A DNA stretch of 64,000 bases from Octopus sinensis (lineage: Eukaryota). Under the pieces are notes generated by a model, which saw nothing but the letters and a program-made list of their open reading frames with translations, did not search any database and had not been told where the DNA came from. The position numbers and the translations under genes are program-made. The stretch lies in the NCBI RefSeq assembly GCF_006345805.1, contig NC_043014.1, positions 21,824,001-21,888,000 on the forward strand, in the 5' to 3' direction. This document shows, piece after piece, positions 810 to 64,000 of the stretch (its first letter is position 1; each line of letters opens with the position of its first letter).

Positions 810-857
810 GTCTCCGATGAAGGGATATAATAAATATCCTGGAAACAGCTGTAAGAC
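810..857 (+). ncRNA. Minimal type-I hammerhead ribozyme motif (variant core CCGATGA)
   Basis: gtct-CCGATGA-a-gggatat[aataa]atatcct-g-GAAA-CAGCTG-TA-agac: stem I gtct/agac, 7-bp stem II, palindromic stem III, GUA cleavage triplet. Confidence 0.6.
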
Positions 858-13760: not shown

Positions 13761-14025
13761 GGTATTTTATCTCCTTAAATCTAATTTTTTCCCTCCTCTT
13801 AAGATAACATGTTTGGTAGCTTCTTTCCTAGAAAAAGATCTTGTTTCTATTTCATTTACATTGATTATAAGTTGTGGGGAGGGTAGTTGCTTAATAATCT
13901 AGGGAAATCTTATAGATTCCTTGATATCAGCACTTGCAGCTGTAAAGGTTTTGCTATCATTCAAATTGGCTGGATCTGTCTTGTAGCTGTAAATGTTTCT
14001 AAGTTGTTTCCTTCTTTCACTGTTA

Positions 14026-14666
14026 TTTATGAGAAAAAAGATACCCTGTAGCCATAAACTGAGGGGTCACTCGTAAACAGAGCTGGATAACAAAACCGTT
14101 CCCTCTTTAGTGTCCACCCATAAATATGACCCTAGTATCGATCTATTACATTTCAATCTGTGTTAGGGTTAGGGTTGGGTTAGGGGTTATGGGTGGGGGG
14201 AAAGGTATCTTTTTTTCTTCAGAAATGTAAATAAACCCAATCTGTTTCTTAAACAAATATATAATATGTAATGTGTGTATCTGTGCAACAGAGAGGGAAA
14301 TTAAAACTGCATATGTTGTGAACTTAGAATATGTGTTTATTAATAAAAGTTTAATAACGATAATTTTTTATTCATACGAACGTAATTGATATGAAATATG
14401 TCATAAATAACAGTGACAAACTGAGTAGACACCGCCAGAAAATGTTACGGCAGAAATTGTATTCACCTCAATAGACGTCACTGATTGGTTGAAATTGCCG
14501 AAATGCAAGAAATTAAACAACAAATAGCTTACAAACTACAGAATTTTCTCAAGAAAGCCAAGAGAAAAAGATGTTTTATGTAACACACTACCAGTATACG
14601 AAGTTTAAAAGTGTTCAGTTACAAAGAAATTATTTTGAAAATCTGCCGGTCAAAGTGAAAAGATCC
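14026..14666. mobile_element. GGATC-ended MITE, right portion
   Basis: Ends gtgaaaagatcc at 14666. Contains a TTAGGG tract at ~14162-14200. It is the inverse of 16070-16480. Confidence 0.8.
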
Positions 14667-15614
14667 GGCCATTCTAATAATAATCGACAATCCATTTTTT
14701 GGTAGACTTCACCGTGTGCTTAGGGTCGTTATCCTGTTGTAAAACCCACCCTTCACAAAGCTGGAGCTTTTCTACAGAGTCCCATAAATTATTGTTCAAA
14801 ATATTTTGGTACATCTCTGCATTCATTCTACCATCTATCACATGTAAATTGCCAGTACCATTTGCAGAGAAACACCCCCACACCATGATGTTGCCACCTC
14901 CAAACTTTATGGTAGGAATTGTGTTTTTCGGCAAATAGGCAGTACCATCTTTCCTCCAAACATGGCTACGCGAATTTCTTCCAAACAATTCAATTTTCGA
15001 CTCGTCTGTCCATAGAACATTTTCCCAGAATGTATCAGATTTATCTTTATGTTCATAAACAAATTTTAAACAGGCATCTCTATGCCTTTTAGTCAACAGC
15101 GGAGTTTTTCTAGGAGAGCGTGACTTCAGTTCATTACTGATTGTTCATAGTGTAACACTAGTCCCTGAAGCTAACAAATCTTCTTGCAACTCCTTTCTGG
15201 TGATCATTGCGTTTTTTTCGATTCTTCGCTTCATTTTTCTTAAAAATCTAGGGGAAATCTTGCATGGTGCACTGGATCTTATTCTGTTTTCAACAGTTCC
15301 CGATTTTTTTATATCTTTGAATAAATGAAAATATGGTAGAAAATGGAATACAAAGGGTCTCTGATATTTCCCTGTAACTTTTACCTGCTTTCCACTGTTC
15401 AATTAAGTTTTTCACTGTATTTGTATTTTCGCCATTATTACGATACTACTTTATGTTGTCTCAGTGCTGAATGAAGAAGCTAACGTTTTGACACTTAAAA
15501 ATGACAACTGATAAGATTATTGGAACAAACGAGAAAGTTCTAGTAAAAAAATTATTTTAACAGTATTTTGTGGCATAGAAAATCATAAATTTATTCTGTA
15601 CGAATACTTTTTTC

Positions 15615-16722
15615 AGATCTTTTTGGTTTGAACGGCGTAACTAAACACTTTTAAACTTCGTATACTGGTAGAAAGCTGACTAGAAGAGGATGCATCCGAG
15701 CTTTGGTGTTGGAGAAGACTTTTACGGATTCCATGGACAGCGAGGCTTACCAATGGAGAAGTTCTTAAGCAGATCAGGCCAAAAATGTCGCTAGAAGCTA
15801 GAATCACCAAGCTTAGATTGGCATATTTCGGTCATATTATGTGGAGAAAATCCCTGGAGAAGGACATCATGCTCGGAATGGTCAGTGGCAAGAGAGGAAG
15901 AGGCCGACCAAGAACCCGCTGGCTTGACACCATCAAGTGTGATACCGGAATGGACATAGCCAATCTGAAAGAAGCGGCCCAGGATAGAACTGACTGGAGG
16001 ACACTGATCCAACGAGTAACCAAGAGTCGACTTCAACTGAGCGGATAAGAGAGATACTGGTAGAATGTGTTTATAAAACATCTTTTTCTCTTGGCTTTCT
16101 TGAGAAAATTCTGTAGTTTGTAAGATATTTTCTTCAATTTTGGCAAGTTCAACTAATCAATGACGTCTATTGAGGTGAAAACATTATCTGCCGTAAAATT
16201 TTCCGGCGGTGAAATATGAAAATGTCCCCCATTTAAGAAACAGATTAGGTTTATTTACATTTCTGAAGAAAAAAGATACCCTTCCCCCCACCCCTAACCC
16301 TAACCTAAATCCTAACCTTAACCCTAACCCAACCCTTAACCCTAACAGATTGAAATGCAATAGATCGATACTAGGGTCATAATTATGGGTGGACACTAAA
16401 GAGGGAACGGTTTTGTTATCCAGCTCTGTTTACGAGTGACCCCTCAGTTTATGGCCACAGGGTATCTTTTTTCTCATAAAAAACAGGAACATTTTCATAT
16501 GACGCCGCCATAAAATGTTACGGCAAAATCGTTTTCACCTCAATAGACATCATTGATTGGTTGAAATTGCCGAAATGCAAGAAATTAAAGACCATATATC
16601 TTACAAACTACAGAATTTTCTCAAGATGTTTTATAAACACATTCTACCAGTATACAAAGTTTAAAATTTTTTAGTCACATAGAAATTATTTTAAAAAGCT
16701 GCCGTTCAAACCGAAAAGATCC
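15615..16722. mobile_element. GGATC-ended MITE, 8-bp TSD
   Basis: TSD cttttttc at 15607-15614 and 16723-16730. (CCCTAA)-like tract at ~16290-16345. Confidence 0.9.
15674..16053 (+). mobile_element. 5'-truncated RTE LINE with 12-bp TSD
   Basis: ELWCWRRLLRIPWTAR...LRLAYFGHIM..SLEKDIMLGMVSGKRGRGRPRTRWLD. TSD ATACTGGTAGAA at 15662-15673 and 16054-16065. Confidence 0.9.
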
Positions 16723-18920: not shown

Positions 18921-19222
18921 AAAGAACCCCTCTATAAAAACAAAATCTTGCACAAAATAGGCTTGCTTCCCATCAACAGAGTTCGGTTCCACTGCATGGT
19001 ACTTTGGGCATGTATATTCTACTATAGCCTCGGGTTGGCCAAAGCTTTGTGATTTGGTAGATGGAAACTGAAAGAAGCCCGTCGTATATATATACATATA
19101 TATATATGTGTGTGTGTGTGAGACCACCGGTTGACAACTAGTACTGCTGTTACAGTTCTATATTTAAGAGATGAGAAATTATTTACATTTGATGGATATT
19201 TGTCCTCATCTTGTTTGTTGTT

Positions 19223-19268
19223 AACACAACGTTTCGGCTGATATACCCTCCAGCCTTCTTCAGGTGTC
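19223..19268 (-). ncRNA. Minimal hammerhead ribozyme in Penelope terminal repeat
   Basis: gacac-CTGAAGA-a-ggctg[..]cagcc-GAAA-CG-TT-gtgtt. The palindromic ACGT stem III is typical of dimer-acting PLE hammerheads. Confidence 0.8.
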
Positions 19269-19371
19269 TTGGGGAAATTTCGAACCTGGGTTCTCATTCC
19301 TCAGGTATTTTTGATGTTATTATTATTATTATTACTATTATTATTATTATTATATTATTATTATTATTATT

Positions 19372-19445
19372 CAGGTCACTGCTTGGAATCAAACTCGGAA
19401 TTTTGGGGTTAGTAGCCCGCACTCTTAACCACTATGCCATATGTC
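19372..19445 (-). promoter_or_regulatory. tRNA-like Pol III A/B-box module inside Penelope terminal repeat
   Basis: A box TGGCATAGTGG at 19429-19439. B box is GTTTGATTC here and canonical GTTCGATTC in the sister copy at 22146-22154. Anticodon-arm-like ggg-ctactaa-ccc. Confidence 0.6.
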
Positions 19446-20477
19446 AATGAGCAATTATGGAGTGAATTTTAGGGCTTATAAATCTAATCTTTTTCTATCC
19501 TTCCTTAATACCAGTTCCCATATTCTGCTCATATCTGCACTCAGTCTGCTTAGGAGGTTGTTGTGTCCTAGCATATGTGCTGCTTCTTTTAGTTTTCGTA
19601 TTTTCCAGTGGTATTCTCTGTCTATTATTTTAACTTCATCCCACAGGGGGAAGTGGCCTCCATTTTCCCATACTTGATCAGCTATACCCGATTTATCAAT
19701 ATCTCTCTTTGATTTCGTTATTTAATTGATGTTTTTTCCAACGGTTGTAATGGATCCTCTCACGGACGAGGGAATGTCCTACCCTTTCCGCTACTCTTTT
19801 AGCTTCAGATAATGAATCACTATCAGTGATACAAGAAAAACTAGTGGCAGACACCCATGTAAAAGAATGCACTATTATACCAATAAGAAACTTGATGGAA
19901 ATGTTGACCTTCTGTGTAGAAACTACCTACTTCACTATGGACACTGATATATATCGACAGAAGGAGGGTTTAGCTATGGGTTCACTATTATCACTGGTAA
20001 TAGCCAATATATACATGGAATACTTTGAGAATTTGGCTTTAGGATCAACACCACTAATACCAACACTATGGCTACAATATGTTGATGACACCTTCATACT
20101 CTGGCCCCACCAGGAAGATGTCCAAGTGCTGTTAGATCATGTGAACTCAATAAAGCCATCCATACAGTTCACAATGGGAAAGGTAAAAGACAATCAACTG
20201 GCATTCCTGCACGTATTAATAACACGCACCAAGTATAGATTCAGGACACCTGTATACCGCAAGCCGACCTTCACTGGACAATACCTCAACTTCAATTCCC
20301 ACCATCCATACAGTGTAAAGAGAGGGATTGCTCAGTGCCTAAAACATCGTGCAAAGAATATAAGTAGCGATCGTGATACACACCATGAAGAGATGATCAA
20401 GCTCAGTAACGATCTGTAAAGCAACAACTACCTGAAAAGTATACTATCCTCCTTAGCAGACTGAGTGCAGATATGAG

Positions 20478-22026
20478 CATCATCATCATCATATCATCAT
20501 CATTTAACGTCCGCTTTCCATGCTAGCATGGGTTGGACGGTTCAACTGGGGTCTGGGGAGCCCGAAAGCTGCACCAGTCCAGTCAGATCTGGCAGTGTTT
20601 CTACAGCTGGATGCCCTTCCTAATGCCAACCACTCCGAGAGTGTAGTGGGTGATTTTATGTGCCACCGACACAGGTGCCAGACGAGGCTGGCAAACGGCC
20701 ATGCTCGGATGGTGTTTTTTATGTGCCACCGACACAGGTGCCAGACGAGGCTGGCAGACTGCCACGCTCGGATGGTGTTTTTTATGTGCCACCGACACAG
20801 GTGCCAGACGAGGCTGGCAGACGGCCACGCTCGGATGGGTTTTTATGTGCCACCGACACAGGTGCCAGACGAGGCTGGCAGACGGCCACGCTCAGATGGT
20901 GTTTTTATGTGCCACCGACACAGGTGCCAGATGAGGCTGGCAAACGGCCACGATCGGATGGTGCTTGTTACGTGCCCACAGCACGGAGGCCAGTCGATGC
21001 GGTACTGGCTACGGCCACGTTCGGATGGTTTTCTTATGTGCCACGTGCCACCGGCACTGGTACCACAAAGATACAAATTCCATTGATGTTCATCTATTTT
21101 GATTTGTTTTGATTTTCACTTGCCTCAGCAGGTCTTCACAAGTGTCACAAGAAGGAAGGTATGCACAGGTGGACTGACTACGTCCCAGGTAGGGGCCATG
21201 GGTTATGGCCTGACTAGTCTTGCCGGGTCTTCGGATGGTGTTTTTATGTGCCACCGACACAGGTGCTAGATGAGGCTGGCGAACGGCCACGATCGGATGG
21301 TGTTTGTCATGTGCCCACCGCACTGACTACAGCACTGATGGATTTTTGTGTGCCACAGGCACTGGTACCACAAGATACAAATTCCATTGATGTTCATCTA
21401 TTTTGTCTATTTTGATTTGATTTGATTTTCACTTGCCTCAACCGGTCTTCACAAGTGTCACAAGAAGGAAGGTATGCACAGGTGGACTGACTAGTCTTGC
21501 CGGGTCTTCGGAAGGTGTTTTTATGTGCCACCGACACAGGTGCCAGATGAGGCTGGCGAACGGCCATGATCGGATGGGTTTGTTACGTGCCCACAGCACA
21601 GAGGCCGGTCGATGCGGAACTGGCTACGGCCACGTTCGGATGGTTCTCTTGTGTGCCACCGGCACTGGTACCACAAAGTGTGTGCCACCGGCACTGGTAC
21701 CACAAAGATACAGATTCCATTGATGTTCATCTATTTTGATTTGTTTTGATTTTCACTTGCCTCAACAGGTCTTCACAAGTGTCACAAGAAGGAAGGCATG
21801 CACAGGTGGACTGACTACGTCCCAGGTAGGGGCCATGGGTTATGGCCTGACTAGTCTTGCCAGGTCTTCGGATGGTGTTTTTATGTGCCACCGACACAGG
21901 TGCTAGATGAGGCTGGCGAACGGCCACGATCGGATGGTGTTTGTCATGTGCCCACAGCACGGAGGCCAGTCGATGCGGTACTGGCTACGGCCACTTTCGG
22001 ATGGTTTTCTCTTGTGTGCCACCGGC
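20478..22026 (-). mobile_element. RTE 3'UTR insertion with 61-63-bp units and a ~320-bp higher-order triplication
   Basis: Units at 20658, 20721, 20784, 20845 and 20907. Block ggtcttcacaagtgtcacaagaaggaagg at 21131, 21443 and 21768. It interrupts the Penelope terminus with a small deletion. Confidence 0.85.
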
Positions 22027-22207
22027 GGGAATTGGTATTAAGGATGGATCGAAAAATATTAGATTTATAAACACTAAAATTCACTCCATAATTGCTCACA
22101 GAGCAGAGTGGTTAAAAGCACAGGCTACTAACCCCAAGATTCCGAGTTCGATTCCAAGCAGTGACCTGAACAATAATAATAATAACCCAGGTTCGAAATT
22201 TCCCCAA

Positions 22208-22253
22208 GACACCTGAAGAAGGCTGGAGGGTATATCAGCCGAAATGTTGTGTT
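22208..22253 (+). ncRNA. Minimal hammerhead ribozyme, sister of 19223-19268
   Basis: gacac-CTGAAGA-a-ggctg[..]cagcc-GAAA-TG-TT-gtgtt (C>T in stem III). Confidence 0.75.
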
Positions 22254-23699
22254 AACAACAACAAGATGAGGACAAATATCCATTGAATGTAAATAATGTA
22301 GTGCTGGTGTGTTTGCGTCCCCGTAACTTGGCAGTTTGACAAAAGAGACTGATAAAGTACGTGCTGGGATCAATTCACTGAACTAAAAATTCAAGACGGT
22401 GCCCCAGCATGGTCACTATCTACTGACTGAAATGAGTAAAGTATTAGAAGTCAATGATTACCAGAGTATGAAAGCAGTTTGAATGATCAATAAAAAGGAT
22501 TACTAGGCTATCAATACAGTAATGGTGATCAAAAAGATGTGTTGTCATATATGTTTAATAACCAATACAATTAATCATGTTGCGAAATTAATAGCGATGT
22601 ATTTAATCTCTCATGGTTGTATTTTCATTAACTTACAATGATAAATTAACTGTATTTAATGACTCGGTTCTAACACACTTGATCTATGATCAAAGGCATT
22701 CCAGATGAGATCATCCTGTCTTGTTCTTTCTTGCTTTTTTTTACATGAACAATATAGTCTGATGTGTCCCTCTTTTTATAAGAGCGTAGAGTCTCATTTC
22801 TTGCAAGTCAAGTGGCCACAAAGATTCCCATGGCTCACTTGTGTGGTTTAATCTACTGCTTTTGAACAAATAGTTCATTTCAGAAGACAGATTTGTCATT
22901 TTCTCGATGTTATCTTTATAGCCATAAATATGCAGTTCATCACAAACTATAATGATGCTCCAACCATAGAAATACTTGACTTGGTTGGGTTATGAAAAAT
23001 CAAAAAAAAGTTTACAATTTCCTGTAAACGCTGTACATTTATATTATTTATATCGACATTATATTTTAATCAGTTTGATCTCCAGTGGTCATCAGGTTCA
23101 TGGACATGTACTCTCTGACTGGATTCAAATTAGGAACTCTAATATAGTTATGCTTTGAGCCACTAAACTACAACTTGTGTTCAAAGTCAATTATTTTATT
23201 TATCATTTTTATAATTATTCCTAATTCTTAATCTGAAAATCGCCAAGAAAAGAAAGTAGAGTGCATCCTTAGTGATGTCTTAGCCTCCAAACAATCGACT
23301 TTCCTGAATGAAAGAGCAGGTTCTCCCAGACAAGTGACTATGATATCAAAAGTATTTCATTTAAATTGTTGGAAGTTGACAACTGCAGACGAGACATGTA
23401 CAAAGAAGGCATTCCTAAAAGCCAACCTTCTGTGAAGGACAGAATAGTAATAAGTGTAGGACTTCAGGTGTTGGACACAACAAGGATGATGAAATGAGTG
23501 ACAAGAAGTCCAAGAATGCCTGAGAAGAAGTAGAATAAGTCTAGCCACCTCTAATCGGCAGAAGTCATTATAGTGGTGGTAAAAAAAAAGGCAGAGATTG
23601 CATGCCTATAGATCAAACATAGGAATGTGTCCATGAGTGATTTTATGATGAATTGTCACGTGACTCTTTTCGGATGTGATCTAGTATCTCTGTGTGTGC

Positions 23700-24460
23700 A
23701 GCTGTTAGGGGGAGCTCAGTAAGTTTTTCAGTATTCAATTACTTCATGAGATCAAAGCGTGAAAGTTTTCAATAGAGTTGAGGAAAATATCCAGGTAAAG
23801 AGGCTTTTTCAGGACCACTCATTTCTCTCCTAAATAGAATTTGTACATTTTGCTGCTGTTGAAATACAGCCTGCATTTTTCAGTCAATATCCAGTTGATA
23901 CTGTACTTTTATTAAAAGCCATATGTGCCTGGCTAGTATTATGAAGTTTTAGCTATTCTGGACCCTAAACAAAGACTTGTGGTTGTTCAGGATCGATCTT
24001 GAAAGAGTTTTCAGTCTCTCCGACATTCTGTTGCACTTGTTCTATCACTCCCACATACCAATACGCTTCCTGTGGGAGTGCTTGAATAAAACCCCTATTT
24101 CATATCAACAATCTCTGTATTACATAGTCATTATTTCTGCATGAGCAACTTGTCTCAGAACTAATTTTGCAACAATTAACTAAAATCTGTTTTACGCACA
24201 CATGTAAAATGACTCTCACTTCTGAGACAGTAAAATGTGATTTGAAGGAGTTTTGCTGCTCTTTCGAATTGGTTGATAACCACATAAAGGCTTCTTCATT
24301 GCTGTTGTCAAGGTGAACATCCAACTGTTCTGATAAACTAGTTGGATGTTGTGAATTCCTAAGCATTTCAGCTGCCAGGTAAACATGCTTAACCCAAAAC
24401 TGCTGCTTTATCAATAAGATCAGCTTCAGGAAGTCATGTTTTTGACAAAAGACAGTCATA
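23700..24460 (-). pseudogene. Highly degenerate probable DNA-transposase fragment, unclassified
   Basis: ORF 24100-24459 has protein-like composition (YLAAEM, EEAFMWL) and frameshifted continuation. Family not identifiable by eye. Confidence 0.25.
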
Positions 24461-24536
24461 TATATATATATTGATAAAAATGGTAAGACAGCAAAAGAAT
24501 GAAAGAGACCTCGATATTATGTAAATAGAGGAATTT

Positions 24537-24683
24537 ATCTGTAAATGTAATATGTGACAATTATTCAGTAGCTGGAGTTTTATCATGGATACCAAATAAT
24601 TGTCACATATTACATTTACAGATATATATATATATATATATATCTGTAAATGTAATATGTGACAATTATTCGGTATCCATGAT
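24537..24683. repeat. A / inverted A / (TA)n / A fold-back repeat
   Basis: atctgtaaatgtaatatgtgacaattatt at 24537 and 24642, with its reverse complement at ~24594-24623. Confidence 0.85.
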
Positions 24684-26039
24684 CATTGAGAAATAGTCAC
24701 TCATTCTAGTCTCAACACATACCTGCACAATAGATACAAGAACATTCAGAAACCTTTGTGGAGCAGATACTGACATCAGATGGACTAGATGCACTAATTT
24801 AGTCTCATTGTCTATGTTTTAAAACTATGATGTGAATGCTTCTCCATTTCTGGTAGAAGAAACACATGCTTAGTGACCATCATGGTCACTGCATCTTCTC
24901 AGCTTTTGTCTACATCATTATGATTAAGTTTAGCCAAATTATTTTCCTAGAGAAAAACCCTCTCATTCGTTCTAGCTAACTGTTACCTCTTCATATCACC
25001 CAAGTTTTACAAGCCAATAGGATAATATTTATGTGGTTGCTTGACCAGGATGAAATAGCAACCAAATCTTTTAAATCATATCTTAGTGTTTGGAAAAGAG
25101 ACTACTTCAGTGTACATATGGAAAGGCTTGAATGCCTTTGAACATAGGTTTTCTTTGTCAGTGCCACTCTGAGGTTAGACACAGCAACAACAGCAACAGT
25201 AACACCATTTTAAATGTATTACATCAAATTTCGAAGTGGATGGCTCTATGAAAGAGACATGAATCTCGTAAGTAAACATAAGTAAACTTCCTGAGTTCTC
25301 TTTTATTCTGGAAACTTTTATAATGTATCCAACATCTTTTAGTAAAAGCTCGAACAACAACACCCATGCAACCACAACATAACTATATTTCCACTGACTG
25401 AAAGCAAAAATCATGTAGTGCCAGATAATAAGTTCACCACAAACCACAACCATGTCCTTAAACATCTTCCCATCCAATCCACCATGACGCAAACCCACAA
25501 CTACAATCTTTCATGTGGTACCCACAGAACGATGGTGAAAGAGTTAGTAGGGTCTGCGATGTGAAGACTCGTTTTTTGGCTCCTTTACATAGGGATTCAT
25601 AGAGGGAGTGGGATGGTGGGAAACTCGAAACTAGTATTTGACAGATACTTGTATTAATCAACCCTGAAGTGATAATTGGCAAAGTTGACATTAGCGGGAT
25701 TCGAATTCAGATCACAGGGTAGGAACATACACTGTAACCCTGCCTTTCACCACTACACTAAACCAATACAGCACCCATTAAGTCAAAATATTACACTACC
25801 ATCACCTATTTCTACAACTACCATTAACCACCACTACTATTACTTCTACTATCTGAAATAAAGTAGAGACAGTCACAGCTATAATGCCTTTGATTATAGG
25901 CCAGACTCAATGGGGTCTTAATAATTAATACTAAGATCAACAAAACTGTAACAGCAGTACTAAATATACACACACTATTACCACCACCAACACCACTGAA
26001 AACATGAACAAGGAACCAACAATGAAACTTCTACCTATT

Positions 26040-26600
26040 CACTTGGCCTGTTAGACATAAATACCATTAGACCTTATTTTCTTAAAAGGGAAGGACACAT
26101 TAGGCAATGTAGTCATAGACATCAAAGTCAGGATGATTACAGTTGAAGTGCCTTTGATCATACATCTGCTAGATTATAGCTGGTCTGGGGCTAAACTACA
26201 ACCACAAGAAGCAGAGAGGGCTTCTTTGTAGATGCTTGACTAGAAACAGCCACCAAATCGCTTTCATATGAACTACCATCTTAAAAAAAGAGCAAGTTGA
26301 GATAATATAAACAGACCATAATTGTAATTTTTTTTTAATGGGCAGGATGGTCATGGCTGGTTTACTTTTTTGATCATAAGCTTGCTCAATCAGGGTGCAC
26401 TTGTGCTAAACAAGGAGCCTTTACGTGGTCACTCAAATTGCTTCAAACAGCAGTCAAATATCCTTAAATTCACACCTTAATGTTAAAAGTGTTTTCAGTT
26501 CTATTTACATTGGCTGAAAAAAAGCGAAATGGTCATGAATGAAATGTCTTTCAATCACAGACCTGCTTGACCGGGACTGACTTGGAACTAAACAACAATA
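26040..26600 (+). repeat. Three diverged ~190-bp tandem copies of an interspersed repeat
   Basis: ggatggtcatggctg..tttgatcata..ctgct..ggctaaac-type motif three times. Relatives near 4250-5020, 22660-22830 and 25030-25170. Confidence 0.55.
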
Positions 26601-27191
26601 AACTCATTAAGGTGATAACTGATTACAATTAGTATTTCCTACCTTTATATGAAGATAGATAGCCAGTTAGCAACAACACCTGAACAGGTTTCTACCAGTC
26701 GCACCTTTGTTCTTTAAAAAAACCACTAACAGTGTAATAATATATGACTGCTATGGGATGTTTTACTAAACAAAACGATGAAAGATCACCATATTGATTA
26801 CTCTTGACATAACAGGAACCAACACATTAACTACCTTTCCACAATAGTTTGTCTTCAAGCTTGGGAAATATGGAAATATCTGAGGTTGCTGTCCATTGTA
26901 CTTGCTTTCTTTCATGGGATGCATGTTATTGTATTACAGCTGAGAAATTATAGCAGTAAGTTAGGAACCAAGAGTCACTGATGTAACTTTGCAGTTGTAG
27001 TCATTCATTCATATCTACGGTTATCTGTCTGTTTCCATGATATAAAGATTACCTTTATATATATATACAAAATAAGGGCAAAAGAAAAATTATAAGGCCA
27101 GATATGCCGAAAAAAAGACAAAAATTGTCAATAACCATTATAATTTATGCGTCTCGAAACAAACCGATAGAAATTTCTAAAAAATCCGTTA

Positions 27192-27252
27192 TTACCGTAT
27201 TGGTCCCAATTTCGGGGTTAATTCATAAGAATTTTCCCCTCTTCAGCGATAA
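27192..27252 (-). ncRNA. Type-I hammerhead ribozyme, intact core
   Basis: ttatcg-CTGAAGA-gggg[18 nt]cccc-GAAA-ttgg(ga)ccaa-TA-cggtaa: all three stems pair, AUA triplet. Confidence 0.8.
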
Positions 27253-27504
27253 ATACGGGGGATATTAGTGAAATACTTACTCATACCCATGGAAAAATTC
27301 AAGCACTAAGTACCCCAAATATATCCAAAATAGAAAAACTTTGGCACATCTCGAGACACGTGTGATTCGAACTAGAAACTTTCACAGAGTGAGAGAATCC
27401 GGAAGTGAACACTATTCAATTTATAACTAATGTAGGATAAAAAATTTTTCGGGAAAATATATATATATATACTTTATTTAAAGCAGCAGAAAATTCAACA
27501 AAAT

Positions 27505-27542
27505 CTGTTACTCTGAGTTTCTCGTTGCCGTTCATCAGACAG
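27505..27542 (-). ncRNA. Minimal hammerhead ribozyme, left arm of palindrome
   Basis: ctgt-CTGATGA-acg[gcaa]cga-GAAA-ctc(a)gag-TA-acag. Confidence 0.7.
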
Positions 27543-27558
27543 TTTTTGCTAGCAAAAA

Positions 27559-27596
27559 CTGTCTGATGAACGACAACGAGAAACTCAGAGTAACAG
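27559..27596 (+). ncRNA. Minimal hammerhead ribozyme, right arm of palindrome
   Basis: ctgt-CTGATGA-acg[acaa]cga-GAAA-ctc(a)gag-TA-acag. Confidence 0.7.
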
Positions 27597-27698
27597 ATTT
27601 TGCTGAATTTTCTGCTGCTTTAAATAAAGCATATTACTCTACCACTGGTATTTGAGTACTCTTTTTTCCACCTTGTTTCACATTTATGTGTTTACTCC

Positions 27699-27735
<37 letters not shown>

Positions 27736-27766
27736 GAATAAGTAACAACAGATAGATGACGTGTCA

Positions 27767-27852
27767 ATTCACTACAGCTGTTTCCAACGAAATTTTAATT
27801 TATGAATGGAGACATTACTTCATTAGAAAAAAAACGTTTTTATCAGGTGAAT
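27767..27852 (-). ncRNA. Hammerhead motif with mutated core, in left arm of inverted repeat 27737-27993
   Basis: attcac-CTGATAA-a-aacg[long loop]cgtt-g-GAAA-CAGCTG-TA-gtgaat. The right arm carries only the GAAA half. Confidence 0.6.
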
Positions 27853-28659
27853 ACATGAACCATAACATTTAAAAACATTCAAAATCCAACTAGTTTTTTT
27901 TTCTAATGATGTAATGTCTTTATTAATCAATTAAAAATTTGTTGGAAACAGTTGTAGTGAATTGACACATCATCCATCTGTTGTTAGTTATTATATTATT
28001 ATATATGTTTTGTAGTTTTAATTTTGGTTAAGAAATGAAACAATTGTAGATGAAGATGTTAATTAATTACTTAATTTGACCCATTAGATCTCTCCATTTT
28101 CAAACTTAATAATATTTGATATTTTATATAATATATTCATTGAGAAATATCTCTTCAAAATACAATATATTGAACCAGTGTATCTCTTATTAGAATCTTG
28201 AATAAAAATATCCCTATAAGAGGTCTAAATATCTTCATAGTGATCATACACACACACACATATATATATATCAGTCTTCCTACCATCAGTTCAGTAATCA
28301 GAGAAAGAACATATTCTTTTCTTTTATTTGTTTACTCATTTCAGTCATTTGACTGCGGCCATGCTGGAGCACCGCCTTTAGTCAAGCAAATTGACTCCAG
28401 GGCTTATTCTTTGTAAGCCTAGTACTTATTGTGTTGGTCTCTTTTGCCGAACCCCTAAGTTATGGGGACATAAACACACCAGCATCAGTTGTCAAACGAT
28501 GTTGGGGGGACAAATACAGACACACAAACACACACACACACATATATATATGAGGACATTTCTAGAAAAACAAGGATGAAATAGCCAATAATCTCATTCT
28601 CTTGAAATCCACACATGAACATACAAATATTGGCTGACTAAAAAGAGCTTAGGAAGCAA

Positions 28660-28900
28660 GGCACCACATAAAAAGTATTGGTGTGGGTGCTGGCACCATG
28701 GGAAAAGCACTGGTGATGGTGCCACATAAAAAGCACCAGTACACTCTGTAAAGTGGTTAGCATTAGGAAGGTATCCAGCAATAGAAATCAAGCCAAAACT
28801 CTGTGTGACCTGATGTGGGGCCCTGGCCTTGCCAGTTACTGTCAAGTCATCCAGCCCATGCCAGCATGGAAAACGGACATTAAACATTGATGATCATGAT
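28660..28900 (+). mobile_element. Old RTE 3'UTR fragment
   Basis: ttaggaagg.atccagc and cccatgccagcatggaaaacggacattaaa plus (GAT)n tail. Similar old fragments near 55005-55230 (-), 57860-58230, 61555-61710 and 62060-62300. Confidence 0.7.
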
Positions 28901-30310
28901 ATTTATCAACTTGTAAAATACCCAGTGTCTTCTATGAGGATGTGAAGACTATTAAAGATCAGAACATCTGATATGGAAGAATTGCATTGGTTCAGGAAAG
29001 TTACCAAAGTGAGAGAGAGAGTAGTAACCTTGTTTGAAACAGTCATTTTAAAACGTCCTTGACATCTGGTATAAAATGAAAGTGATGTAGCAGACAACCA
29101 TATCCTATAGATTGAATGGAAAACAAAACAGTTTTCACTATATGCAATACTTTCAGTCAAGTTTGTTCTACTTTTGAACAAAATCTGCCAAAATTATCTG
29201 CATCTTTACTACTGCAAGCCAACCAGCCATGCTTCATAGGCATGTTACCAGAACAGTTATGAATTGAAATTAAATCAATATGACCAACACCTCTAAGTCT
29301 AACTATATATGCAATGAAATACTGAATCATTATATCACATATGTTAATTTTCCCAATTAATCATGGCTTTCTAATGTTACTCTACATTCCAGTTTTAAGT
29401 TTTTTGTTAATACAAATTCAAATGCAGTCATACAGTCATATACAATATACTGACTATTTTTTTGAATTTCAATTTACTGTCATCAAAGAATATATTCTTA
29501 CTTACTGATGTTTCCTTACAATTTTTAACATCACCAATATCTACCATCTACATGAGTCTGCCTTGGTCCATTAATTTCATCAGTACATGTATCATATACT
29601 CACTGTGAAAACAAACAAACTGAATGTCTTCAAAACATATTATGTATGGTATTAATGCATACAAAAATCCAATAAAATAGTTATGAACTCAGCTTAATTA
29701 ATCTTAGTAGTTATTTTTGTAAAATGCTTATATTTGTATACTGTATGCATGGATACATACATGCATACATACATACATATATATAGACAAATGCATATAG
29801 AAATGCTGATCACTTAAGGTGGATGGAACATGTGGAAGAAGAAGACAAGGGACAAAGTATTGAAGGCCATTCTCAAGACACTAAGCCTTACAAAGGACCA
29901 AGATATCTGGTGCCTTGTTGTACTCAAGAAGACTTGTCCACTACAGCAGAATTGATACTGGTGCTGATGCCATGTATAAAGCATTGGTGATAGTAAAAAG
30001 AAGGAATGTAGGTAGTATGATAGTAGTAGGGTGTTAAATTGTCAAGTGACCTAAAAGTGGTTTGTTATGGATTATAGCAGTGATTGGGACTGTTTTTTAA
30101 TGAATTCTTTGGAATCTCTTGAGTGCATCATTTTTAATATTTACATGTGTTTGTGTTATTCTAAGGCCGTGGTGGATATGTTGTTCGTAGACACGTTCAA
30201 AAGGGGTCTGTATTTTGTAATAAAGAGAGTCTCTTTATAAATTCATTGGCTACAGGTTGTATTGTCCTTGAATTGGTAGAGGGGGAAAATTCTGAAGCTT
30301 GGATTTTTGT

Positions 30311-30360
<50 letters not shown>

Positions 30361-31855
30361 CATATATACACACACATGTGCATATATGGCTACAGGACAC
30401 CACCAACAGTAAACAACATGAAATATGAAAACAAATGAGTTCAATACACAAACAATGAGAGAAACAAATGGAAAACAGGACAAGTAACATAAAGAATGAT
30501 CTTTCATCAGTTGCCAGCTGTCTATCTACTCCTCATTTCTATCATTGAACGACAATATGAGTCTTCAAAGACAGTTACTCCCATAAGTACCAAAATAAAT
30601 TTGAGATTTATGGAGGGTCAAAGTTGGGAACAAAAACAGGACAATGGAGACATACAAGGAAACCAAACAAAAACAAACATAGAGAGTCGTTAGACCAGAA
30701 CGAGGATAAAATAGCAAACGCTGGAGAAATATTTTCTTTGACAAGAGAAAAGATAGAAGAGAGAGATAGGATACATCCAGTCCTTAGGACAGTCCTGAAG
30801 AAAAAGAAAGATGATTACATGAGGAAAAGAAAGATGGATGATGGTCACGTGTTAATAGCAAATATTCTGCTGAATACCACAGATTCACTTGTCAATTGCT
30901 TGACCTTAAGCACTTGAGCATGTCCCCTTGTGGCTGACAATATGTGCATCTCTGATCATGAGCAGGAGTAGTGGGGGAGCATCATAGCCGTGTGTTGGGA
31001 GAGATTCTTTGGGATTTGAATAAATGTAACAAAAGCAAAGTTTGAAAGAAATATTAGCCATTTTTCATAGTTTCTAGGGGTGAGCAAATAGAAATAATAG
31101 TTGCTACCCAAGGACAAAAATTATGGAATACTGTTTACACACGGATCTGTACTAGGTTTTTTAAGCTTCCATTTACCAATTCCTCTCACAAGGCATTGCT
31201 CAGCCTGAGACTATACCAAAACACAATTGCCCTAATGCTATGCTGTGGGATTGAACCAGGAACCACATGGTTTTAAAATAAATTTCATAACCACACACCT
31301 GTGTCTGAGCTTCACAAACACATAAACACGCAAACATATAATTGTATAATTATATAGAAACAACATTCCTGTTAGACTTATACATTTATTTGTATGACTG
31401 GGTTCTAGTTTTCATTTGTTTATCATGTTTTTTTCAATATACTTTCTAGAGTCCCTAAATGCATTGTCAATGTTTCCAGATCTTCATAGTGTTATCAATA
31501 TTTATTAGGTGTAGGGAATAAGTTGATTACATCAACCCTAGTGTTCAAGTGGTACTTACTTTATCAAGTCTGAAAAGATAAAACACAAAGTCGACCTTAG
31601 TGGAATTTGAACTCAGAACATAAAGACAGACGAAATGCCACAAAGTATTTTGCCCTATGTGCTAATGATTCTGCCAGCTCTTTACCTTGCAATGAAGTAA
31701 TACTGATTTCAAATTTTGGCACAGGACCAGCAAGTTTGGGGAAGGAGTTAAGTCAATTACATCAATCCCAGTTTTCAACAGGTACTTATTTTATTGACCC
31801 CAAAAGGATGAAAGGCAAAGTTGACGAAATACCACTAAGCATTTTGCACAGTATA

Positions 31856-37370: not shown

Positions 37371-38698
37371 TCATCATCATCATCATCATCGTTTAACGTC
37401 CGTTCTCCATGCTAGCATGGGTTGGACGGTTCGACCGGGGATCTGGGAAGCCAGAAGGCTGCACCAGGTTCCAGTCTTATCTGGCAATGTTTCTACAGCT
37501 GGATGCTCTTCCTAACGCCAACCACTCCATGAGTGTAGTGGGTGCTTTTTACGTGCCACCCGCTCAGGTACCAGGCGAGGCTGGCAACGGCCACGGTCGG
37601 ATTGGTGTAATTTACGTGCCACCGGCACGGAAGCCAGTCGAGGCGGCGCTGGCATCGGCCACGATTCGGATAGTGCTTTTTACGTACCACCAGTCCAGGG
37701 GTCCTGGCATCTGCCGGGTGCCAGTCATAGGATTGGTTCAATTTCGATTTTGATTTCGATTTCACTTGCCCCAACATGTCTTCGCAAGCAAAGGGGGTTG
37801 GCATGGGTGCCTGTCGTCGGATGAGGTTCGATATCGACTTCGCTTGCCTCAACAGGTCTTTGTGTCCAAGGGAAGAAAGGCATGCATAAGTGGGCTGGGC
37901 TCACTTGTCCTGCCTGGTCTTCTCACGTACAGCATATTTCCATAGGTCTCGGTCGCTGGTCATTTCCTCAGTGAGGCCTAAAGTTCGAAGGTCGTGCTTC
38001 ACCACCTCGTCCCAGGTTTTCCTGGGTCTACCTCTTCCACGGGTTCCCTCAACTGCTAGGGATTGGCACTTTCTCACACACCTATCTTCATCCATTCTCA
38101 CCACATGACCATACCAGCGCAATCGTCTTTCTTGCACACCACAACTGATGCTTCTTAGGTACAACATTTCTCTCATGGTACTAAAGCTCTGTCGAGTATG
38201 TACACTGACATTACACATCCATCGGAGCATACTGGCTTCATTCCTCGCGAGCTTACGCATGTCCTCAGCAGTCACGGCCCATGTTTCACTGCCTTGTAGC
38301 ATGGTTGTTCGTACACATGCATCATACAGTCTGCCTTTTACTCTGAGCGAGAAGCCTTTAGTCACCAGCAGAGGTAAGAGCTCCCTAAACTTTGCCCAGG
38401 CTATTCTTATTCTAGCAGTTACACTTTCAACGCAGCCACCCCCACTACTGACTTGGTCACCTAGATAACGGAAGCTATCAACTACTTCTAGTTTTTTCCC
38501 CTGGAAAGTGATGGAAGTTGTTTTCTGCAGATTTTCGGAGGTTAATGCTCCCGAGCATCTGCCACATACAAAAACTATCTTCCCAGTTAGCCTGCCTTTG
38601 ACATTGCTGCACCTCTTATGTGTCCATAGCTTACACTGGGTACATCTTATAGAGTTTCTACCTACACCTTTTCTACAGATCGAGCAGGGCCATCTTCC
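37371..38698 (-). mobile_element. 5'-truncated RTE LINE (PHD-like finger, RT C-terminus, 3'UTR)
   Basis: Open frame from WPCSICRKG to EKTRQDK*, with [15 protein letters not shown] and [10 protein letters not shown]. (CAT)n tail. The 5' end abuts (TA)n. Confidence 0.95.
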
Positions 38699-38730
<32 letters not shown>

Positions 38731-47280: not shown

Positions 47281-47331
47281 AGCTTCCTGATGATTTCTTT
47301 TGAATGAAACAGTTCTAGTCCTGTAGAAGCT
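47281..47331 (+). ncRNA. Type-I hammerhead ribozyme, intact core
   Basis: agcttc-CTGATGA-t-ttc[tttt]gaa-t-GAAA-cag[ttctagtc]ctg-TA-gaagct, followed by aataaa and (TA)n. Confidence 0.8.
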
Positions 47332-48168: not shown

Positions 48169-51036
48169 GAGTACATCCTTGCCAGGAAAAGGGAAAGATG
48201 GCTGCTTATAAATGCCAAAACCTTCCCAGGCGAAGAATGTACCCCACAACATAGACTGGTAGTTAGTGACTTTAGGATCAGGACTAAGAGGATGACCAGA
48301 AGACGACCAACATGGAGAAGAAGGATCTGGAAGCTTAAAGATCCTGCAAATAGACAGAGATTTAGGGACATATTTTTTGAAGCCTTTGACGAAGAAGAAG
48401 GAGATATAGCTTCACATGGGGTAGAAGACAACTGGAGGATTCTAAGGGACAACCTGCTGAGAGCCACTGACCAGATCTGTGGCTGGTGCAAAGTCCCCTC
48501 TTGACCCAAAATAACGTGGTGGTGGAACAATGTTGTAGACAGGGCTATTAGAGAAAAGAGACAGGCTTGGAAGGAATGGAAGAATGGTGGTAGCAGGGAA
48601 TTGTATCAGACTGCCAAAAGAGAAGCTAGGAGACAGGTTTCTTTAGCCAGAGGGGAAGCAGATAAGAAAAAATTTGCCAATGTTCTGCACCGTGAGGACC
48701 AAAGACTTGAGGTATTTCGCGTTGCAAGACAGTGTGTGAGAGAGAATCGTGATGTGGTAGGAGAGAAATGTGTTCGCATGGATGATGGTTCACTTGCGCT
48801 AAATGAGGATGCAAAGAGAGAGGTTTGGAGACGCCACTATGAAAGGTTGCTGAATAAAGAAAATGAATGGGATAAAGCGAGTCTGCCGAATGTCGACCCA
48901 ACAGAGGGACCAGCTATCCAAGTTGACAGTTCCTTAGTAGTTAAGGCAATTAGAAGCATGGAGACAGGGAAAGCCCCAGGCCCATCAGGAATTACTGCAG
49001 AGACGCTCAAAATATCTAGTAGTGTCAGCTATAGCCTAGTCATCCGTATAGTTAACCAGGTGATACACGAAGGAGTCATTCCCAATGACTGGTGTAGCAG
49101 CATAATAGTCAACTGCTACAAAGGTAAAGGTGACACCCTAGATACAAATAATTACAGAGGTATCAAGCTGTTGGATCAGGTAATGAAGGTTACGGAGAGG
49201 GTCATAGCCCAACTAATTAGAGAAAGAGTTAGTTTAGATGAGATGCAGTTTGGGTTCGTGCCAGGGAAAAGCACCACTGATGCCATATTCCTGGTAAGAC
49301 AGTTGCAGGAGAAATATCTAGCCAAAGATAAGCCCCTGTACCTGGCTTTCGTTGACATGGAGAAAGCCTTCAACAGGGCCCCCCCGATCTGGTGGTCAAT
49401 GAGGAAACTAGGGATAGATGAATGGTTAGTGAGAGCTGTGCAAGCCATGTACAGGGACGCTGCTAGTAAGGTGAGGGTTGGCAATGAGTACAGTGAAGAA
49501 TTTCGGGTAGAGGTTGGGGTCCACCAAGGTTCAGTCCTCAGCCCCCTCCTATTTATCATAGTCCTCCTGGCAATAACAGAGGAATTCAAGACAGGATGCC
49601 CCTGGGAGCTCCTCTATGCTGATGACCTTGCTCTAATTGCTGAGTCACTATCAGAACTGGAGGAGAAATTTCAGGTGTGGAAGCAAGGATTAGAATCGAA
49701 GGGCCTTAGAGTCAACCTAGCTAAAACCAAAGTCCTAATAAGTAGGAAGGTAGACAAGTCACAAACGCCTTCTGGTAGATAGCCTTGCTTGATCTGTAGA
49801 AAAGGCGTAGGTAGAAACTCTATAAGATGCACCAAGTGTAAGCTATGGACACATAAGAGGTGCAGCCATGTCAAGGGAAGGCTAACTAGGAAGATAGTTT
49901 TTGTATGTGGCAGATGCTCAGGAGCAATAAACAACTGAAAATGCGCAGAGAGCAACTTCCGCCACATTCCAGGGAGAAAAACTAGAAGTTGTTGATAGCT
50001 TCCGTTACCTAGGTGACCAAGTCAGTAGTGGGGGCGGGTGTGTTGAAAGTGTAACTGCTAGAGTAAGAATAGCCTGGGCAAAGTTCAGAGAGCTCTTACC
50101 TCTGCTAGGGAAAAAAGGCCTCTCGCTCAGAGTAAAAGGCAGACTGTATGACGCATGTGTACGAATAGCCATGCTACATGGCAGTGAAACATGGGTCGTG
50201 ACAGCTGAGGATATGTGTAAGCTTGCAAGAAATGAAGCCAGTATGCTCCGATGGATGTGTAATGTCAGTGTTCATACTCGACAGAGTGTAAGTACCTTGA
50301 GAGAGAAGTTGGACCTAAGAAGCATCAGTTGTGGTGTGCAAGAGAGACGTTTGCGCTGGTATGGTCATGTGGCTAGAATGGATGAAGATAGTTGTGTGCA
50401 AAAGTGCCACACCCTAGTGGTTGAGGGAACCTGTGGAAGAGGTAGACCCAGGAAAACCAAGGATGAGGTGGTGAAGCACAACCTTCGAACTTTAGGTCTC
50501 ACTGAGGAAATGACTAGAGACCGAGCTCTTTGGAAGTATGCTGTGTGTGAGAAGACCCGGCAGGACAAGTGAGACCCATAACCCATGGCCTCTACCTGGG
50601 ATGTAGCTAGTCAACTTATGCATACCTTTCCTTCTTGGGACACAAAACTCTACTTGTGAAGACCTGTTGAGGCAAGTGAGAATCAGAATCAAAATCGAAA
50701 TCGATCAACATCAATGGAAATTGTAGCTGTGATACCAGTGCCGGTGGCACGTAAGTGAACCATCTGAACATAGCCGTTGCCAGCCCCCCATGCCAGTGGC
50801 AATAAAAAGCACCAGCCGATCGTGGCCGTATGCCAGCCCCGTCTGGCACCTGTGCTGGTGGCACGTAAAAAGCATCCACTACACTTTTGGCATGGTTGGC
50901 ATTAGGAAGGGCATCCAGCCGTAGAAACATTGCCAGATCAGACTGGGCCTGGTGCAGCCTTCTGGCCTCCCAGACCCCAGTTGAACCGTCTAACCCATGC
51001 TAGCATGGAAAGCGGATGCTAAATGATGATGATGAT
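48169..51036 (+). mobile_element. 5'-truncated RTE LINE, young but disabled
   Basis: End of APE domain (QHRLVVSD), RT (NYRGIKLL, QFGFVPGKSTTDAIF, GVHQGSVLSPLLF, LYADDL), PHD-like finger, C-terminus, 3'UTR and (GAT)n tail. Stops at 48502 and 49780, frameshift near 49935. Confidence 0.97.
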
Positions 51037-63644: not shown

Positions 63645-64000
63645 TATCTGGTGGTCAATGAGGAAACTAGGGATAGATGAATGGTTATTGAGAGCTGTGC
63701 GAGCCATGTACAGAGACGCTGCAAGTAAGGTGAGGGTTAGCAACGAGTACAGTGAAGAATTCCGGGTAGAGGTTGGGGTCCACCAAGGTTCAGTCCTCAG
63801 TCCCCTCCTATTTATCATAGTCCTCCAGGCAATAACGGAGGAATTCAAGACAGGATGCCCCTGGGAGCTCCTCTATGCTAATGACCTTGCTCTAATTGCT
63901 GAGTCACTATCAGAACTGGAGGAGAAGTTTCAGGTGTGGAAGCAAGGATTAGAATTGAAGGGCCTTAAAATCAACCTAGCCAAAACCAAAGTCCTAATAA
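63645..64000 (+). mobile_element. 5'-truncated RTE LINE running off the window end
   Basis: Near-identical to 49388-49741 (IWWSMRKLGIDEW...GVHQGSVLSP...KTKVL). Confidence 0.95.

Follow-up and report, generated by a model that had tools for sequence, protein, structure and literature searches.

Hammerhead ribozyme motifs in cassettes between (TA)n tracts of the Octopus sinensis genome and their probable Penelope-like origin

Results and Discussion

Organization of the cluster

The window analysed here is a stretch of 64,000 nucleotides from Octopus sinensis (contig NC_043014.1), and all positions below refer to it. Within about one kilobase, three cassettes set between TA tracts carry hammerhead motifs on both strands, in DNA that is generally rich in TA tracts and retroelement remnants. 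The features of the cluster are as follows.

27056..27067, (TA)6 tract, abutted by the 3' end of cassette 1
27068..27456, minus strand, cassette 1, a piece of a high-copy family with its hammerhead 131 nt from (TA)n
27192-27252 (core 27198-27246), minus strand, hammerhead 1, intact core, AUA, predicted cut 27198/27197
27457..27471, (AT)7 tract separating cassettes 1 and 2
27472..27550, minus strand, inverted arm of cassette 2, without tail, carrying hammerhead 2
27505-27542 (core 27509-27538), minus strand, hammerhead 2, GUA, predicted cut 27509/27508
27549..27552, head-to-head junction of cassette 2, self-complementary CTAG, 11-14 nt upstream of either core
27551..27634, plus strand, direct arm of cassette 2, carrying hammerhead 3
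27559-27596 (core 27563-27592), plus strand, hammerhead 3, GUA, predicted cut 27592/27593
27635..27700, plus strand, 66-nt tail, on the direct arm only, beginning at an internal AT-rich site
27701..27732, (TA)16 tract between cassettes 2 and 3
27733..27890, minus strand, left arm of cassette 3, carrying hammerhead 4
27767-27852, minus strand, hammerhead 4, core broken (CUGAUAA at 27840-27846, G8A at 27841)
27888..27895, approximate head-to-head junction of cassette 3, 8-bp palindrome
27895..27999, plus strand, right arm of cassette 3, beginning within stem II and ending in a decayed TA tract
about 27990..28244, fourth repeat family, directly after cassette 3

An earlier note on this DNA had described three unrelated short elements separated by (TA)n, which agrees with our result: the cassettes show no blastn similarity to one another, and (TA)6, (AT)7 and (TA)16 tracts delimit them. 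The 79-bp-arm palindrome with one hammerhead per arm that it had reported was also recovered. The segment 27472-27550 pairs with 27551-27629 with 2 mismatches (27528/27573 and 27498/27603), and each arm has a core. Cassette 3 is an inverted repeat as well (27730-27834 / 27895-27999, 87%), whose right arm keeps only the 3' half of the ribozyme, namely GAAA, a mutated stem III and the 3' strand of stem I. No internal inverted arm was found in cassette 1. Judged by arm divergence, cassette 2 looks the youngest (2/79 different), and cassette 3, with its less similar arms and decayed core, looks older.

The tail of cassette 2 contains a predicted hairpin (27635-27658) whose stability is not beyond chance alone (z -0.57), and at the internal AT-rich site where this tail begins many family copies join (AT)n. 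Further to the right, a possible decayed fifth hammerhead was noticed at about 28100-28160 (minus strand), consisting of a 7-bp stem between two defective core halves.

Hammerhead ribozyme motifs

The type-I core tested comprises C3 U4 G5 A6 N7 G8 A9, G12 A13 A14, A15.1-U16.1 and H17 together with stems I-III, following the consensus given in PMC3088659. The descriptor scan returned four strict CUGANGA hammerhead folds in the whole window, three of them inside the cluster kilobase, whereas none of 40 dinucleotide shuffles of the window contained a single one (mean 0.0, maximum 0). The earlier reading of the motifs as minimal type-I hammerheads with palindromic stem III is supported. The count of four hammerheads at these places stands in part. 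Hammerheads 1-3 have the entire type-I core, but the fourth reads CUGAUAA instead of CUGANGA; the copy of hammerhead 4 at the cluster thus lacks the core, and it was detected once any base was permitted at position 8.

Hammerhead 1 has a stem I of 6 bp, a stem II of 4 bp with G10.1-C11.1 and a palindromic stem III of 5 bp + 2 nt. In hammerheads 2 and 3, stem I has 4 bp (11 bp if one mismatch is allowed) and stem III 4 bp + 1 nt; stem II consists of just 2 bp and a tetraloop, with an A.A apposition at its base, and the foot of stem II in hammerhead 4 is A.G. While the 10.1-11.1 pair is thus G-C in hammerhead 1, the A.A of hammerheads 2 and 3 and the A.G of hammerhead 4 do not pass the strict filter described in PMC3088659. 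Hydra ribozymes are in many cases depicted with one additional base flanking stem II on either side (PMC8557442).

The predicted cuts lie 131, 38, 109 and 41 nt from (TA)n for hammerheads 1, 2, 3 and 4, respectively. These distances place each motif in a terminal repeat near the 3' end, as in endonuclease-bearing Penelope-like elements (PLEs). No hammerhead was among the 65 Rfam matches at E up to 10 in 24000-31000, and the Rfam miRNA matches, with scores below gathering, merely mirror the hairpin.

Cassette families in public contigs

We further aligned contigs of four public runs from four studies (X5, X2, X3 and X11), chosen out of 24 candidates, to positions 26500-28300. The left flank is single-copy, with contig depths of 56, 6.9 and 54 in X5, X2 and X3. 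In these three runs the peak summed contig depth, which is not a copy number, amounts to about 6,900-8,000 times the flank for cassette 1, 31,000-99,000 times for cassette 2 and 220-360 times for cassette 3. The depths differ by orders of magnitude, which argues that the cassettes belong to separate high-copy families and do not form one composite. Moreover, depth remains high to about 28240, and at least five contigs among those listed end at 27990-27996 and then diverge from the window, so that 27990-28244 represents a fourth family. Run X11, putatively RNA, contains contigs of all cassettes, with cassette 2 enriched relative to cassettes 1 and 3 in comparison with the DNA runs; we do not take this enrichment as evidence of transcription. 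Exact-pattern scans of public genome contigs, viral contigs and metagenome contigs gave 0 matches.

Among the 40 of 173 variants listed, G8 at 27841 is intact in 87, 89 and 91% of the cassette 3 family depth; at 27952, about 86-90% of it preserves the palindrome of stem III. Among these variants the family majority therefore has the intact base at both ribozyme defects of cassette 3. The core variant U4C (27537, equivalent to 27564), also among the variants listed, accounts for 16-53% of the cassette 2 family depth in the four runs; U4C lowers activity in vitro, yet it is tolerated in a viroid (PMC3088659). No compensatory pair was seen among the 40 of 173 variants listed, which are unphased.

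Cassette 1 shows a drop in depth at 27232-27292, immediately upstream of the ribozyme, with a recovery farther upstream (within 27232-27414), and its loose ends at 27257 and 27306 suggest subfamilies. In X3, one contig goes back from 27275 to 27069, which corresponds to a cassette 1 family unit of about 214 nt in head-to-tail arrangement.

Head-to-head joints of the cassette 2 family

Loose ends behind 27552 run on with other sequence in all four runs (18, 14, 18 and 5 contigs). The parent is therefore longer than the arm and not itself palindromic, and the family extends past the centre of the palindrome. Behind 27634, the loose ends are (AT)n in X5, X2 and X3 (20, 28 and 34 contigs; three of the four runs among the rows listed), so that the short, tail-less end is a normal and common end of the family.

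At least 13 head-to-head joints, in which an antisense arm is followed by a sense arm, occur at differing positions among those listed (10 of 15 listed, the best 15 of 105, plus 3 of 12 listed, 12 of 36). Measured from the cut site, the starts of the inverted arm in these 13 joints range over 0-54 nt on the upstream side, and those of the direct arm lie between 18 nt upstream and 41 nt downstream. Most of them have one to three times single-copy depth (34-189 against 54-56 in X5 and X3; one X3 row has 3.4). The joints at 27556, 27561 and 27562 cross the CTAG centre and may be other loci sharing that centre, and since the stem I strands are mutually similar, short alignments may be distorted. 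The earlier idea of the palindrome as a unit with a fixed centre is not supported by these data: the family continues past the centre, and the other listed joints vary. Because of these two facts we regard the palindrome as an insertion product and not as a unit.

The same observations bear on an alternative in which the palindromes would be MITEs left by a TA-targeting DNA transposon and would resemble hammerheads by chance. Inverted arms flanked by TA would suit a MITE. However, a fixed unit with symmetric TIRs was not found, as the ends are asymmetric owing to the tail, the family runs on beyond the centre and the joints are variable; in addition, the hammerhead motifs are far above chance and the ribozyme positions are intact in the family majority among the variants listed. 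We find this explanation scarcely credible.

A palindrome with zero spacer may also be an assembly or amplification fold-back artefact, and no contig among those listed bridges the palindrome or any TA junction by 31 letters on both sides. Against an artefact, the arms differ at 2 positions, one of which (27603) is private to this copy against more than 99% of the cassette 2 family depth; each of the two outer ends coincides with an end known from the family, comparable joints appear in three runs, and the arms of cassette 3 have diverged to 87%. An artefact is thus very unlikely. An empty site was not seen, as no joint among those listed (15 of 105) skips the whole cluster.

Three regularities of the joints were considered and rejected. 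First, the inverted arm begins within 1 nt of the cut site in 2 of the 13 listed joints, which chance allows (rough estimate about 0.1-0.15). Second, 6 of the 13 listed inverted arms have their start at the stem I edge, 37-48 nt upstream of the cut site, a count that is biased because the reference itself ends there. Third, three of the four junctions in the window lie on small palindromes (4, 8 and 4 bp) and the one at 19806-19811 does not; this idea is weak because 4-bp palindromes occur at 5.7% of positions.

Predicted folding of the palindrome

The earlier note had suggested that self-cleavage competes with formation of the long hairpin, as a possible switch. Indeed, the cores are intact in both arms, and a transcript of either strand holds a ribozyme together with its own antisense. 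However, since the arms lie head to head, the antisense arm is transcribed first on either strand. With ViennaRNA, the 5' strand of stem I is paired to the antisense arm with a probability of 0.81-1.0 on emergence and 1.0 afterwards, and forcing the hammerhead fold in the two full palindrome transcripts costs 68 and 73 kcal/mol. These predictions were computed without tertiary contacts or proteins; a gap of this size would be too large for a balanced switch between cleavage and hairpin.

Even folded alone as monomers, hammerheads 2 and 3 lie 5.6-6.1 kcal/mol above the ensemble (hammerhead 1, 2.9 kcal/mol), and monomers of metazoan minimal hammerheads (min-HHRs) are described as failing to cleave, their dimers as cleaving at a low level (PMC4209133). 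Same-sense duplexes between the palindromic strands of stem III are predicted at -7.4 to -12.3 kcal/mol. For hammerheads 1 and 2 the best predicted two-strand fold is a dimeric hammerhead; for hammerhead 3 it is not. Stem III is accordingly predicted to need a same-sense partner, which the antisense arm cannot supply. In addition, the listed joints vary between loci, and intact cores are expected anyway in a young copy. A regulatory switch is therefore extremely unlikely. A transcript initiated within the centre could free one ribozyme; no pointer to such a start was found.

A neighbouring Penelope-type element

Outside the cluster, 5-8 kb away, the window contains a Penelope-type element with the following parts, located by tblastn and a relaxed hammerhead scan.

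19151..22297, Penelope-type element, inverted arm and direct arm
19488-19712, minus strand, C-terminus of the endonuclease, in the inverted arm
19228-19263, minus strand, hammerhead of the inverted arm
19811-20452, RT remnant, in the direct arm
22213-22248, plus strand, hammerhead of the direct arm

The relaxed scan found 7 motifs, whereas 30 local shuffles contained 0.07 on average, and the two hammerheads of this element are of identical type and textbook minimal. Its relatives are RTs (56 hits), one of which has a C-terminal GIY-YIG domain, at 45% identity; a PDB search with this RT gave weak RT matches only. The element shows that Penelope-type elements of this genome leave head-to-head inserts with two ribozymes. 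The cassettes belong to other families, and their parentage is not proved by this element. Nested inside it, at about 20493-22020, there is an insertion of 63-bp repeats.

Comparison with known elements

Endonuclease-bearing PLEs are reported to share an inverted 5'-truncated copy, a tail on one end and a bias for (TA)n (PMC8557442), and palindromes occur at head-to-head junctions, for which self-priming has been proposed (PMC3846280). In metazoans, opposite-strand pairs of min-HHRs are 100-700 bp apart, and an extra base follows A9 (PMC4209133). File S1 of PMC8557442 gives (TA)n as the insertion site of 26 of 27 Hydra families, one of the families being from Octopus. The Hydra ribozymes in File S2 have a palindromic stem III of 3-4 bp, and the foot of their stem II is often flanked on both sides by a base that is unpaired or additional; Penelope-13_HM has an inverted truncated copy with a ribozyme on each strand (PMC8557442).

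The cassettes conform to much of this anatomy. An inverted 5'-truncated copy stands head to head with a direct copy in cassettes 2 and 3, a tail on one end only is seen for cassette 2 (27635-27700), and the cassettes are inserted in (TA)n. The combination of inverted truncated arm, one-end tail, (TA)n target and opposite-strand hammerheads corresponds to the published insertion anatomy of endonuclease-bearing PLEs, and by this analogy it supports the Penelope-like origin that had been proposed. The (TA)n targeting claimed earlier is borne out as well, as the cassettes are set between (TA)n tracts and family ends run into (AT)n. This target is not by itself diagnostic for the Hydra clade, because it is common to Naiad and Neptune.

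With the Hydra clade as described in PMC8557442, the cassettes share the (TA)n target, a hammerhead about 100-150 nt from the 3' end, a 4-bp palindromic stem III with a loop of 0-2 nt, one additional base to either side of the stem II foot and an inverted truncated copy with a second ribozyme. By eye, likeness to the canonical File S2-type hammerhead is closest for hammerheads 2 and 3, partial for hammerhead 4 and weak for hammerhead 1. Compared by eye, hammerheads 2 and 3 agree with Hydra-2_aMil in stem I (ctgt/acag), stem III (actc-N-gagt) and GUA, and with Penelope-3_HM in an identical stem III. About 40 nt behind its ribozyme, Hydra-2_Amil has a tail hairpin that resembles 27635-27658 in shape, with both bases of one pair altered, and Hydra-2_Ajap and Hydra-1_Crog have looser versions of it, again compared by eye. 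In cassettes 1 and 3 we found no Hydra-type tail match.

There are also differences from the Hydra clade. The cassettes have no ORF left; A.A or A.G stands at the foot of stem II in place of the usual U.U or paired bases; the cassette 2 ribozymes have a 2-bp stem II, with U4C in part of the family; and the cassette families are not among the consensus sequences available from PMC8557442. The 3' ends of the octopus Hydra and Naiad consensus sequences available there do not match the cassettes by eye, and 8 short cassette motifs had 0 occurrences in the supplement of that paper, whose line breaks could hide a match. On the short by-eye match of ribozyme and tail, cassette 2 is likely the 3' end of a Hydra-clade element; cassette 3 is probably a Hydra 3' end too, and no clade is proposed for cassette 1.

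Compared with the PLE insertions described in PMC3846280, the cassettes show the same head-to-head inverted pLTR, junction palindrome and optional one-end tail. They differ in that no target-site duplication is readable inside (TA)n, that the tail of cassette 2 has 66 nt against about 31 nt (30-40 bp is described for PLE tails), and that the arms of cassette 2 are cut to about 80 nt, so that the whole insert is a palindrome. Like the metazoan PLE min-HHRs in PMC4209133, the motifs are of type I with a palindromic helix III and an extra base after A9, and they are mostly single or in opposite-strand pairs from truncated elements. In contrast to those, helix III is longer in the cassettes (4-5 bp), and helix II of hammerheads 2 and 3 is shorter and lacks G10.1-C11.1.

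Animal non-LTR retrozymes (PMC7229834; bioRxiv 10.64898/2026.07.22.740005) resemble the cassettes in being short, non-coding, AT-rich and PLE-related, with a type-I hammerhead. However, the cassettes are inverted and not tandem, and a head-to-tail array of 150-450 bp units with a hammerhead in each was not found at the cluster.

Proposed origin of the cluster

We consider it quite probable that the cluster consists of stacked, independent and heavily 5'-truncated insertions of three or four (TA)n-targeting Penelope-like families, and that the palindrome was made in one insertion. The order of events that we infer, with its RT and endonuclease partner, would be as follows. The GIY-YIG endonuclease of the element would nick a (TA)n tract, and the RT would copy the RNA from its 3' end, first the tail and then the ribozyme, by target-primed reverse transcription. 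It would stop early, for cassette 2 at CTAG just outside stem I; the same event would yield a second, inverted copy, by fold-back on the cDNA or from a second template, and the self-complementary CTAG would link the two head to head. The inverted arm would then be joined to the other side of the target at the internal AT-rich site, and the proposed reason why it has no 66-nt tail is this attachment. Each insertion would leave a hammerhead-bearing 3' end of the element RNA with (TA)n on both sides, where the next family could insert. Cleavage of the parent RNA would require ribozyme dimers formed through palindromic stem III, and a read-through transcript of the palindrome would zip into the 79-bp hairpin without cutting. 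The dip and renewed rise of cassette 1 depth speaks against simple 5' truncation, which does not predict it.

The claim that these are non-coding mini-elements stands as far as the copies at the cluster are concerned, which do not code for protein, but coding elements reduced to their ends by 5' truncation account for them just as well. No ORF with RT and GIY-YIG is present at the cluster locus, and tblastn with 56 Penelope-type proteins, a query set free of Hydra proteins, gave no RT or endonuclease remnant at 26-29 kb. It is possible, at less than even chances, that the families are instead stand-alone non-autonomous elements, SINE- or retrozyme-like and derived from Penelope ends, in which a short RNA of fixed length is moved in trans by a Hydra- or Neptune-type RT. 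Only the parent would differ; the mechanism of insertion and the palindrome would be as above. The very high depth of cassette 2, the lack of a coding remnant and the head-to-tail unit in the cassette 1 family are consistent with such elements, and non-autonomous PLE derivatives have been described (PMC8557442; bioRxiv 10.64898/2026.07.22.740005). On the other hand, there is no tandem array at the cluster, the tandem hint comes from one contig in one run, and contigs of cassettes 2 and 3 continue upstream.

A more specific variant, which we regard as unlikely, would make cassette 2 the terminal part of a non-autonomous RNA that derives from Hydra and is hyper-abundant. Its tail hairpin, which by eye appears common to coral and sea-cucumber Hydra elements, would recruit the RT, and its dimer-forming hammerhead would hold two RNA copies, priming both sides of the cut (TA)n. 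If true, this would explain the head-to-head insertion of Penelope-like elements, and it would be directly testable on tens of thousands of tiny copies with mappable joints.

Taking the stacked insertions as the preferred reading, the cluster as it stands amounts to ordinary transposon debris, with three or four Penelope-like 3' ends that had not been described. The kind of element is already known, and the cassette families are additional members of it. In the literature on octopus and cephalopod hammerheads, Penelope elements and head-to-head pLTRs we found no paper on the cassette families, which Repbase or Dfam may contain. Head-to-head insertion by PLEs and the role of their hammerheads are treated as open questions in PMC8557442 and PMC3846280. 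The abundant family, with its short copies and readable joints, offers a well-powered genome-wide test of where arms start and stop relative to the ribozyme. If transcribed, such palindromes would be a passive source of dsRNA against their own family.

Other features of the window

Several further features were noticed in the window. At 47287-47325 (plus strand), just before a long (AT)n tract, there is a type-I hammerhead of Hydra-like build, with U.U at the foot of stem II, a 4-bp stem III with an 8-nt loop, and GUA. At 814-853 (plus strand) lies a hammerhead fold whose core reads CCGAUGA (U4C) and whose stem II has A.G at the foot, and it shares the 8-nt palindromic stem III and GUA with hammerhead 4; no perfect TA tract adjoins it. 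At 24533-24683, beside (AT)11, a head-to-head stub (24533-24570 / 24571-24621) is followed by a third arm of its family at 24644-24683, with no complete ribozyme left.

The RT remnants at 37897-38699 and 48505-50576, which we take to be an RTE-type LINE, are 89-92% alike and lie in opposite orientation, and the second is found again at 63646-63945. The segment 10441-11021 is a MITE-like inverted repeat of 199 nt, 96% complementary, with arms 183 nt apart. Another inverted repeat at 14020-16486 (142 nt, 97%) surrounds a transposase-like frame at 14674-15144 (minus strand), and (CCCTAA)n at 16292-16346 adjoins one of its ends.
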